Shown piece by piece: positions 198-3,595 of a stretch of 3,595 bases of DNA. Every line of letters begins with the position of its first letter. The stretch's first letter is position 1. The stretch lies in NCBI RefSeq assembly GCF_003334305.1, contig NZ_QOWS01000052.1; one strand, 5' to 3'. The notes beneath the pieces were generated by a model. That model was not told where the DNA came from and did no database searches. It worked only from the letters and a program-made list of their open reading frames with translations. Both the position numbers and the translations under genes were made by a program. Source of the stretch: Escherichia coli. Lineage in GTDB: Bacteria > Pseudomonadota > Gammaproteobacteria > Enterobacterales > Enterobacteriaceae.

Positions 198-1354
198 TCA
201 GGCCACCGGTGCCGGGTTAAACACTGCCAGCTGGTTATGCAATCCCCATTGATCCGAGATGGTTTTCTTCTTCCCGCTGGCGACGTCGAGAATAAAGTGG
301 AACAACTTCCAGCCCACCTCTTCAATGGTCTCTTCGCCGGTAGCGATAGTGCCTGCGTTAATATCCATTAAATCAAACCAGTGGTTCGCCAGCCCGGTGC
401 GGGTCGCCATTTTAATGACGGGTACCTCCATCAGGCCGTACGGCGTACCACGGCCGGTCGTAAACACTTGCACGGTGATACCCGAAGCCACCTGTTGCGT
501 GCCACAGACAAAATCGCTGGCTGGCGTCGCGGCGTAAATTAATCCGCGTTTAGTCGGGTGTTGACCGGGCGACAGCACTTCAACAAGTGCGGTTTTACCC
601 GATTTAGCAATGGAGCCGAGTGCTTTCTTTACCACGTTGGCGAGGCCGCCCTTTTTGTTGCCCGGCGAAGGGTTGGCGCTGCGGTCGGTTTTGCCCATAT
701 CGGGATAGTTATCGTATCAGGCCATCTCTTCGAGCAGACGCCTGCCCACTTCTTCATTGATGGCGCGTGGCGTTAACAGATGAATGGCGTCGCGTACTTC
801 AGTGACTTCGGAGAACATCACCGTTGCGCCGCAGCGCACCAGCAGGTCAGAGTCGTAGCCGACAGCGCGGGGTTAGTGGTAACGCCGGAGAACGCGTCGC
901 TGCCACCGCACTGCATGCCCACCACCATCACTTCGCCACCGAAGTTTGGGTTCAGCGCAATATTATGGATGGTGCGAATTGGCACCACGGCGGCCGGTAC
1001 ATTAATCGCTACGCCACAGCCGTAGAGGTGGTTCAAGTCGACCACGCCGTCGATGCTCAGGTATTTCGGCAGCAGGTCGCGTTCGATAATTTTAACCACG
1101 TAGTCCTCAACGTCTGCCATGCAGTGCACGCTGGTGGTAATACCCAACAGGTTTTTGGTGCCCACGCTGCCGTCGGCGTTGCGGTAACCTTCAAAGGTGT
1201 AATCTTCCTGCGGCGGCTGCGGCTCCGGCACTTTGGTCGCCCGAGGCAGGGTGTTAAGCGGCGGCGCTTTCGGTAGCGTGACCGTGGATTCGTCGATCCA
1301 GCTGCCTTTGGCGACATCGCGTACCGTGTAACCGATAGCGAATGATTTCACCAT
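198..1354 (-). pseudogene. garD: Galactarate/altronate dehydratase family (GarD/UxaA-like) gene remnant, disrupted by an in-frame stop and a frameshift and apparently lacking N-terminal and internal segments
   Basis: ORFs 198-698 and 818-1450 on the - strand are in different frames. Both carry family motifs ([20 protein letters not shown]-terminal FNPAPVA; SWIDES, GYRNADGSVGTKN, HLYGCGV, MQCGGSDAFSG). Re-reading the gap in the downstream frame gives continuous protein-like sequence ([24 protein letters not shown]...LLEEMA) ending at an in-frame TGA (717-719 on +), six codons before MGKTD. The frame switch lies within 858-876. Sequence upstream of about 1355 has no family resemblance. Confidence 0.7.
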
Positions 1355-1516
1355 TATGAGGAAGGTTGTTATCCCTTTTCTGGCGTATTCGTCATTCCAT
1401 TCGTATCCCCGGTACCGGATGTTTATATCGTACAGTGCCGGTGCTGGCATGCTTTCCTGCAGGTCTGCACCGGTTTAACAAACAAAACTTAACAGAGTCT
1501 GAAGGAGTAGTATTCC

Positions 1517-2127: not shown

Positions 2128-2560
2128 GTGAAGTTGATACCATGGAGTGGAGTGACGTGCAGGCAGGAGATTCGCTCTATGCAGGGTTGTGAGATGAATT
2201 CAAACCGGCTGGCAGCGCCAGTGATATTCGAAGATTCGTCCGGTTGTTACCCAGTATGCATTAAAAACCCAGACATTATGGACAATATAACGGCTTCTAC
2301 AACAAGGAAGTGCCTGTTTACCATCCGGGTGTAATGACTCACCTTTGTGGGCTTTTGCCCGTCGCGCTCTTAACGTTGAAGACATTCTCTGCCTGCTGAT
2401 TCAGGACTGCGACAAAAGCCATATCTGGCTACTGGTCAAGGATGACCAGCGTCTGGAGTAGGTGATAAGCCAAATAGATAAGCTGGAATATGTGGTGAAA
2501 GTGCAACGTAATCAGTCCAATCCGACGATGTTTAACAAGATTGTGGTGTTTTTTCAGTAA
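2128..2560 (+). other. Possible decayed + strand coding remnant convergent with the DeoR regulator gene; identity unknown
   Basis: An ORF at 2179-2334 (51 aa) has AGGAG 9 nt upstream of its ATG. A second frame is open 2291-2457 (…[31 protein letters not shown]), hits an in-frame TAG at 2458-2460, then continues [32 protein letters not shown] to TAA at 2558-2560, one base from the regulator stop at 2562-2564. Open-frame lengths are only weakly above chance. Confidence 0.2.
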
Positions 2561-2561
2561 G

Positions 2562-3344
2562 TCATTCGTCTTCTGAATCAGGTGTAATGATCTTTACAGA
2601 ACCATTCTGGCAGTGCGTAACATAATCTGCCGGTAACGGACGATCGCTAATCAGAACGTCAAATGCAGAGATCGGTGCGAGGCTGGCAGAGGCCACTTCA
2701 TCGAACAACGCGTGGCGGGCGAGCAAAATTTTCCGTAGTCCACGGTTCATCGCTTTACGCTTAGTGGCAAGATCTTCAGGGTTAAACCAGCTGACGCCAA
2801 AGTGATTATGCACACCGCTGGCGGAAATAAATATTTTTCGCGGATTGAGAGAGTCTAATGGCGAAGAGTTACTGGCATCGTAAAAAGCATCACTTCTGGC
2901 ACGATACGTACCACCACAAAGTATTGCTGTTACATTAGGCTTTTCATTCAACGCAACAAAGACGCGATGTGAGTAACAGATGCCGGTGAAGGTGATTGCA
3001 TCCGGGATCATGCTTATAACGAGTGGTATCTCCTGGCCATTATCAAAGAAGATCAGATCATTTTCATTAACCATTCCGGCAGCCAGAATTGCAATAGGTA
3101 AGTCATCACGATGATTTTTTGGAACGTCATGGATTACTGGCATGGATGGCGCGGGTTTATTCACCATTACAATATAGCCACCCAGTAGGGTCAGTGGCAG
3201 AGGTTCATCTTCCTGATGGAGATCGCGACGAATAGTCATTACAGAAACTTCCAGCATTCGCGCTGCGTCTTTCAAATGGATTCTGTCGGTTTTCTTAAGC
3301 AGTTCCATCAAACGTCGGATACGCTCTTTTTGCTTCGTTTCCAT
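2562..3344 (-). CDS. ygbI: DeoR-family transcriptional regulator, 260 aa (N-terminal HTH plus DeoR C-terminal effector domain); YgbI-like
   Basis: Intact 261-codon ORF in the track; the likely true start is the ATG at 3344-3342, with GGAG 9 nt upstream on the - strand. HTH signature IHLKDAARMLEVSVMTIRRDL near the N-terminus and DeoR C-domain features (DLIFFDNG, AILCGGTY, KIFISASGVH, FDVLISD). The symbol is from memory of the E. coli YgbI N-terminus (METKQKERIRRL…) and is less certain than the family. Confidence 0.85.
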   Translation of the reverse strand: METKQKERIRRLMELLKKTDRIHLKDAARMLEVSVMTIRRDLHQEDEPLPLTLLGGYIVMVNKPAPSMPVIHDVPKNHRDDLPIAILAAGMVNENDLIFFDNGQEIPLVISMIPDAITFTGICYSHRVFVALNEKPNVTAILCGGTYRARSDAFYDASNSSPLDSLNPRKIFISASGVHNHFGVSWFNPEDLATKRKAMNRGLRKILLARHALFDEVASASLAPISAFDVLISDRPLPADYVTHCQNGSVKIITPDSEDE

Positions 3345-3362
3345 CAACTCTCTCTCCGTAAG

Positions 3363-3382
3363 AATGTTATAAAAATAACATT
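3363..3382. promoter_or_regulatory. Perfect 8-4-8 inverted repeat AATGTTAT-AAAA-ATAACATT in the regulator's 5' region; candidate operator
   Basis: 3363-3370 is the exact reverse complement of 3375-3382, lying 19-38 bp upstream of the ATG at 3344. A further AACATT hexamer and a 5-1-5 palindrome AAACA-T-TGTTT occur at 3394-3404. A single IR of this size is near chance expectation for a window this long, so support comes mainly from its position. Confidence 0.3.
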
Positions 3383-3595
3383 TTGGCGTTAGTAAACATT
3401 GTTTTCATTACCATACTATACGACCGCCCCTTTGAAATGAAAAGGGTATAGGCTGCTGAGTTTTGGGCACTAATCTTGTTAGGTTGCTTATGATTAGATA
3501 GTGTTGGCCTGAGTGATGAGACTGGAAGTCTATTAAATAAACATCGGGTTGATGTGCTAATCGCGATCTCAGTCACAAATGATGCAAAAGTAACA

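Follow-up and report, generated by a model that had tools for sequence, protein, structure and literature searches.

A conserved palindrome in the predicted deoQ leader of Escherichia coli is a probable operator for DeoQ

Introduction

The window, the whole 3595-nt stretch of DNA analysed here, is E. coli DNA and is 100% identical to several complete genomes. In strain UMB200201_11 it opens with the 3′ end of agaR, followed by a decayed UxaA-family gene, a short hypothetical ORF and a decayed gene of ACT-domain (ilvN-like) type; the last gene, on the minus strand, encodes a DeoR-family regulator. Ribokinase-like, FucP-like permease and aldose-1-epimerase-like genes follow just past the end of the window and are divergent from the regulator gene. 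Regulator and divergent genes together are the deoQ / deoK-deoP-deoX module for utilization of 2-deoxy-D-ribose, with a deoQ–deoK intergenic region of 305 bp in E. coli. Of the two decayed genes, that for the UxaA-family hydrolase (198–1367, minus strand), between agaR and deoQ, is frameshifted and has an internal stop; the ACT-domain gene (2334–2560, plus strand) is frameshifted, and 1 bp separates its end from the stop codon of deoQ. The presence of two such genes between agaR and deoQ suggests eroded island DNA.

The deoQ–deoK intergenic region is found, at 90–100% identity, in 1598 of 5426 complete E. coli genomes (∼30%), and the whole arrangement of the window beside agaR in 275 of the 5426. 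The difference between these counts indicates that deoQKPX resides in several genomic contexts. The module has been described from Salmonella, and E. coli Nissle and CFT073 carry it too (PMC7924626); a link between deoxyribose use and gut colonization is cited in the same paper. Deoxyribose use through deoQKPX is an accessory trait in E. coli, found in many pathogenic and commensal strains. Salmonella DeoQ is counted, in PMC2222622, among the DeoR-type regulators that recognise palindromes.

We describe here the candidate regulatory sites of the deoQ–deoK region, centred on a palindrome just upstream of deoQ. Their positions in the E. coli allele should aid annotation of the locus, the design of reporters and the reading of natural variants.

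Orthologous loci

Orthologues were collected from one genome per species, giving 52 loci with a DeoQ relative that is 53–86% identical. The genera or species represented are Salmonella arizonae/diarizonae, Citrobacter, Raoultella, Klebsiella, Enterobacter, Kosakonia, Phytobacter, Trabulsiella, Leclercia, Edwardsiella and others. Conservation is counted over 53 sequences. In 52 of 52, deoK is divergent from deoQ, and the intergenic length ranges from 185 to 353 bp; it is 324 bp in both Salmonella loci (L003 and L012).

Results

The best NCBIfam match of the regulator is DeoR PRK10681, which it reaches with 230 bits where the cut-off is 244, and its matches to GlpR, SrlR and AgaR are weak. Identity to K-12 DeoR is 38% overall, with a much closer N-terminal DNA-binding part: both proteins have the segment VSxMTIRRDL, and the recognition helix is nearly identical. 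Because the score lies below the cut-off and overall identity is 38%, the regulator is a paralogue and not DeoR itself. It is DeoQ, and E. coli DeoR has no closer paralogue. Its identity to the proteins of Salmonella arizonae and diarizonae is 84%, and to its orthologues, all of them divergent from deoK, 62–86% (one outlier at 53%). As DeoQ regulon membership implies, the palindrome is thus next to a gene that encodes the DeoQ orthologue and is divergent from deoK-deoP-deoX. Between genera, DeoK varies much less (89–97% identical) than the regulator. By the annotation, the deoQ start codon is the ATG at 3344–3342 on the minus strand. Features of the gene and of the region upstream of it are listed in Table 1.

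Table 1. Coordinates of deoQ and of the observed and predicted regulatory features of the deoQ–deoK region
Feature	Position	Strand	Basis or remark
deoQ, DeoR-family repressor gene, 260 aa, HTH_DeoR + DeoRC	2562..3344	-	Annotated CDS WP_001295538; Pfam PF08220 + PF00455
deoQ ribosome-binding site, GGAGAGA	3351..3357	-	Columns at 1.3–1.7 bits in the orthologue alignment
Site A, 8-4-8 palindrome AATGTTAT-aaaa-ATAACATT	3363..3382	.	Arms 3363–3370 and 3375–3382, 100% complementary
Site A conserved core, ATGTT-N8-AACAT	3364–3381	.	Phylogenetic footprint
Third half-site AACAT, orphan	3395..3399	+	Mean conservation 1.5 bits; ∼+9 to +13 of the predicted deoQ transcript
Predicted -10 of deoQ, TATAGT	3415..3420	-	ACTATA in 47/53 sequences, 1.83 bits
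Predicted -35 of deoQ, TTTTCA, 17-bp spacer	3438..3443	-	Inside the conserved GAAAnAAAAG block
CRP-like site, CGCGAtctcagTCACA	3562..3577	.	Nearly invariant in all orthologues; one perfect half
Site B, ATGATGCAAAAGTAACA(T), full ATGATGCAAAAGTAACAT	3579..3595 (full 3579–3596; L001 12579–12596)	.	Last base past the window end
Site C, ATGTTATTTAAATACCAT	L001 12601–12618 = window-equivalent 3601–3618	.	Dyad scan; 6–23 bp past the window end

The preliminary description of this DNA had pointed to an 8-4-8 inverted repeat upstream of the regulator, and it is there with fully complementary arms; we term it site A. It lies 20 bp upstream of the deoQ ATG. A third copy of AACATT, likewise claimed, is present too: the hexamer occurs at 3363–3368 (minus strand), 3377–3382 (plus) and 3395–3400 (plus), and the only further copy in the window is at 1921, giving four observed where 2.76 are expected. 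These features span 19–60 bp upstream of the ATG, in agreement with the 60 bp that had been given. The small palindrome mentioned alongside them also exists (AAACATTGTTT, 3394–3404, arms 5-1-5), but we reject it as a conserved element: the completing TGTTT, at 3400–3404, has 0.21 bits. A search for inverted repeats near the palindrome additionally returns AAGAATGTT/AACATTGTT and TTATAA, and a second perfect 8-nt inverted repeat is found nearby at 3402–3409 / 3436–3443.

Taken on the window alone, the palindrome and the AACATT cluster are only weakly beyond chance. A perfect inverted repeat with 8-nt arms appears in 4.4% of dinucleotide shuffles of 3345–3595; for three copies of any single hexamer inside 40 nt, the figure is 1.9% of those shuffles and 19% when the whole window is shuffled. 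On a wider scale, the 21.6-kb locus holds four perfect ATAACATT octamers, three of them inside the 305-bp intergenic region, and ATGTT-N8-AACAT with at most one mismatch has three matches in these 21.6 kb, all in that region. The same dyad scan yields 1.16 matches per 21.6 kb in shuffles, so that ∼0.016 would be expected in 305 bp. We term these three dyads site A, beside deoQ, and sites B and C, towards deoK. Their clustering in 305 bp and their conservation across 52 orthologous regions mark the three sites as non-random.

Site A is found in every orthologous locus, with no mismatch to ATGTT-N8-AACAT in 43 of 53. Near deoQ, non-coding columns without any variation are confined to T3365, G3366 and T3367 and A3378, C3379, A3380 and T3381; T3368, T3376, A3377 and T3382 are nearly invariant in the 53-sequence alignment. 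Ten core positions average 1.84 bits, versus 0.61 for the other columns from the ribosome-binding site to the -10, and the centre of the intergenic region (the central 140 bp in E. coli) is essentially unalignable among loci. The check named beforehand was conservation of the half-sites in orthologous promoters, and it comes out clearly: across the 53 sequences TGT/ACAT is invariant and ATGTT/TAACATT nearly so. A palindrome conserved in orthologous deoQ–deoK regions is also what membership of the DeoQ regulon implies.

The inner bases of the arms behave differently. Most genera have ATGTTyC...GTAACAT, and ATGTTAT...ATAACAT is found in E. coli and Klebsiella indica. The conserved unit is thus a 5-8-5 dyad (ATGTT-N8-AACAT, plus T3376 and T3382), and since the inner arm bases vary, the perfect 8-4-8 palindrome is a local variant of E. 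coli and Klebsiella indica.

A consensus promoter scan of the region gave a single sigma-70-like match, on the deoQ strand, whose predicted -10 and -35 are given in Table 1. It would place the deoQ start at ∼3408 and site A at ∼+27 to +44 of the transcript, ahead of the ribosome-binding site. Spacing around this predicted promoter is well kept. The orphan AACAT is 19–20 bp from ACTATA in 42 of the 47 loci having ACTATA, and almost every locus has the right half of site A at 37–40 bp from this element. From site A to the third half-site the spacing is 18 bp in E. coli versus 20 bp in most genera. In six loci with a short intergenic region (L027, L030, L034, L045, L051 and L053; 185–217 bp) both the orphan half-site and TATAGT are missing, while the three dyads and the CRP-like site are retained, with the exception that the truncated L053 is without the dyad at -71. 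The promoter module proposed here thus does not extend to every locus, and in these six loci deoQ would be transcribed from another promoter.

We considered whether the third AACAT is half of a full fourth dyad. Many genera have a degenerate left half (ATGTG or TTGTG) that makes a dyad with one or two mismatches around it; this left half is barely conserved (0.05–0.45 bits) and absent in E. coli, and for this reason the fourth dyad is rejected and the third AACAT is treated as an orphan half-site. The predicted deoQ -10 and -35 are overlapped in E. coli by an imperfect inverted repeat at 3416–3451 (CTATAC...CCCTTT gaaatga AAAGGG TATAG), which is specific to E. coli and not kept in other genera; the GAAAnAAAAG block is kept. 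Further towards deoK, at 3477–3484, TGTTAGGT matches 6 of 8 positions of the DeoR half-site TGTTAGAA and has no right half; it is probably a chance match, since other genera have TTTCAG there.

Towards deoK, conservation takes in nearly all bases between 3559 and the ATG of that gene. Upstream of this ATG, at distances of 71 and 49 bp that are fixed in all loci examined, are sites B and C, which lie 215–237 bp from site A, at or past the window end. Site C is found in every orthologous locus and site B (-71) in all but the truncated L053. In these two dyads the complementarity of the arms is broken (ATGAT/AACAT in B, ATGTT/ATCAT in C). Just upstream of site B, the CRP-like site, read against the consensus TGTGA-N6-TCACA, would be a CRP site centred at -41.5 of a deoK promoter, and TGcTAATGT, in the conserved block between B and C, is likely the extended -10 of that promoter. 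The consensus promoter scan itself found no promoter on the deoK strand. With this assignment, the CRP site would be centred at -41.5, site B would cover ∼-32 to -15 and site C ∼-10 to +8, a predicted geometry that fits repression by exclusion of RNA polymerase.

The preliminary description had further proposed the half-sites as targets of the adjacent DeoR-type regulator, and the conserved cores and the recurrence of the dyad at deoK support this. Its suggestion of control over divergent promoters holds in part: dyads do exist on the deoK side, but site A falls in the predicted deoQ leader and not between the promoters.

Discussion

We consider it likely that the palindrome upstream of deoQ is the deoQ-proximal operator for DeoQ, situated in the deoQ leader and one of three such dyads in the intergenic region. 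From sequence comparison we infer DeoQ as the binder, the positions of the promoters and negative autoregulation. A DeoQ dimer would read ATGTT and AACAT, 8 bp apart, with its two helix-turn-helix domains. At deoK, sites B and C would bracket the extended -10 of a CRP-dependent promoter and exclude RNA polymerase; deoxyribose would release DeoQ and so free the deoK promoter. At deoQ, site A and the orphan AACAT may form a fixed-spacing module with the predicted deoQ promoter, and DeoQ bound at site A would most likely keep its own production down by hindering initiation, promoter clearance or elongation into deoQ. Counting against this reading, simple promoter occlusion would not usually be expected of a site in a leader.

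The nearest known system is that of Salmonella. There the deoQ–deoK region is said to be 324 bp long, with divergent promoters of which that of deoK is about ten times stronger. Repression reportedly involves both DeoQ and DeoR, with catabolite repression acting on deoKPX only, and purified DeoQ is said to bind three operators independently. The conserved dyads A, B and C would fit this three-operator description, the E. coli region likewise having three sites per intergenic region. Salmonella enterica deoQKPX and the E. coli locus are alike in having an orthologous regulator, a divergent layout, three dyads per intergenic region and a CRP-like site on the deoK side. They differ in the length of the region (324 bp in Salmonella versus 305 bp), in site A (ATGTTyC/GTAACAT in Salmonella versus the perfect 8-4-8, ATGTTAT/ATAACAT, in E. 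coli) and in the spacing of site A and the third half-site (20 bp versus 18 bp). Because the E. coli allele differs in its inner arms (AT/AT versus yC/GT) and in this spacing, affinities may differ as well. The probable deoQ leader operator belongs to a known kind of system, worked out in Salmonella in 2003, and since the regulatory logic has been set out for the Salmonella orthologue it opens no new question.

A more distant comparison is with the operators of DeoR. In the K-12 deoCABD control region, TGTTAGAATTCTAACA and TGTTAGAATACTAACA, 599 bp apart, are the classical DeoR O1 and O2. DeoR operators and the DeoQ dyads have in common a TGTT-N8-AACA frame, several operators per control region and paralogous regulators. 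The inner AGAA/TTCT of the DeoR operators is absent from the DeoQ dyads, which add a conserved outer A/T, and the DeoR operators are 599 bp apart versus 215–237 bp for the DeoQ dyads. The inducer of DeoR is deoxyribose-5-phosphate; that of DeoQ is presumably the free sugar. Likeness to the sugar-responsive DeoR-family members GlpR, AgaR and SrlR is at family level only: they too have HTH_DeoR + DeoRC, a regulator beside a catabolic operon and multiple sites at divergent promoters, with other half-site sequences and arrangements.

The relation to DeoR bears on two alternatives for site A. It is rather doubtful that site A serves mainly as a remote auxiliary operator, looping with B and C to tighten repression of deoK. 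DNA looping by DeoR among O1, O2 and OE at deoCABD is established, and DeoQ is the closest paralogue of this regulator, whose operators act over the 599 bp from O1 to O2. Retention of site A in the six loci lacking the predicted deoQ -10 speaks for looping as well, as does a weak clustering of the A-to-C distance classes in helical phase, at ∼0.5–0.95 turn. These distances nevertheless run from 103 to 273 bp in ∼12 classes, the preferred phase is not one of integral turns, and the phase signal is marginal over so few classes, its Rayleigh significance being inflated by relatedness among the loci. Moreover, what stays constant is the spacing of site A from the deoQ start codon and -10, not that from B or C, and DeoQ is said to bind the three Salmonella sites independently. 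The other alternative, that the palindrome is primarily an operator for chromosomal DeoR, responding to deoxyribose-5-phosphate, instead of for DeoQ, we regard as improbable. E. coli site A (TGTTATAAAAATAACA) does match TGTTAGAATTCTAACA at 12 of 16 positions, including TGTTA...TAACA, and DeoR reportedly represses deoKPX in Salmonella as well. Site A is nonetheless not the 16-bp palindrome TGTTAGAA-TTCTAACA of a DeoR operator, being without the inner GAA/TTC, and the cognate regulator beside it is not DeoR itself. Most genera have CC...GT as inner bases, and the orthologous (Salmonella-type) site A matches DeoR O1 at 9 of 16 positions, which makes DeoR unlikely as the main binder outside E. coli. 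The outer A/T (ATGTT...AACATT) and the lack of AGAA/TTCT are traits specific to this locus and common to A, B and C, and the sites accompany deoQ in every locus.

The two repressors need not be exclusive. Given the near-identical recognition helix and the 12/16 match, two paralogous repressors could read related sites, which agrees with the co-repression of deoKPX by DeoR that is said to occur in Salmonella. A further reading, which we think unlikely, is that the E. coli leader site would be an operator shared by DeoQ and DeoR and, together with the orphan half-site at ∼+9 to +13, a roadblock acting after initiation and not by promoter occlusion. Behind it stands a remodelling of site A in E. 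coli and Klebsiella indica, seen in the perfect 8-4-8 form, in its closer resemblance to the DeoR operator (12/16 versus 9/16) and in a spacing to the orphan half-site shortened from 20 to 18 bp. If it were true, DeoQ synthesis would answer both free deoxyribose and deoxyribose-5-phosphate.

Two explanations without a protein-binding dyad fare worse. That the repeat acts on stability or translation, as an RNA hairpin of the 5′ leader of deoQ, is very improbable. Transcription from ∼3408 would include the repeat, with an A/U-rich stem of 8 bp and a 4-nt loop, but the leader folds at -7.8 kcal/mol (z = -0.52), no better than shuffles, and an Rfam scan of the window gave no match. Three of the pairs are constant, 48 of 53 sequences break pair 7 and no pairing measure rises above shuffles; with neither a stable fold nor covariation preserving the pairing, a structured RNA element in the leader is rejected. 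At B and C the motif is kept with its complementarity broken, so it is sequence and not pairing that is conserved. That the palindrome is an accident of A+T-rich intergenic DNA is scarcely credible. The window-only statistics are weak, and there is the other perfect 8-nt inverted repeat nearby; yet the cores are invariant across genera in surroundings that cannot be aligned, and the motif occurs three times per locus. The phylogenetic footprint rules chance out.

Site A as the probable DeoQ operator can also be followed within the species. Diverged E. coli alleles retain it, save that of strain TW10598 (L054), which has a natural G-to-A change at the equivalent of window position 3366, in the left half of the site, invariant elsewhere (AATATTAT). 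The TW10598 allele is a ready-made natural operator variant.
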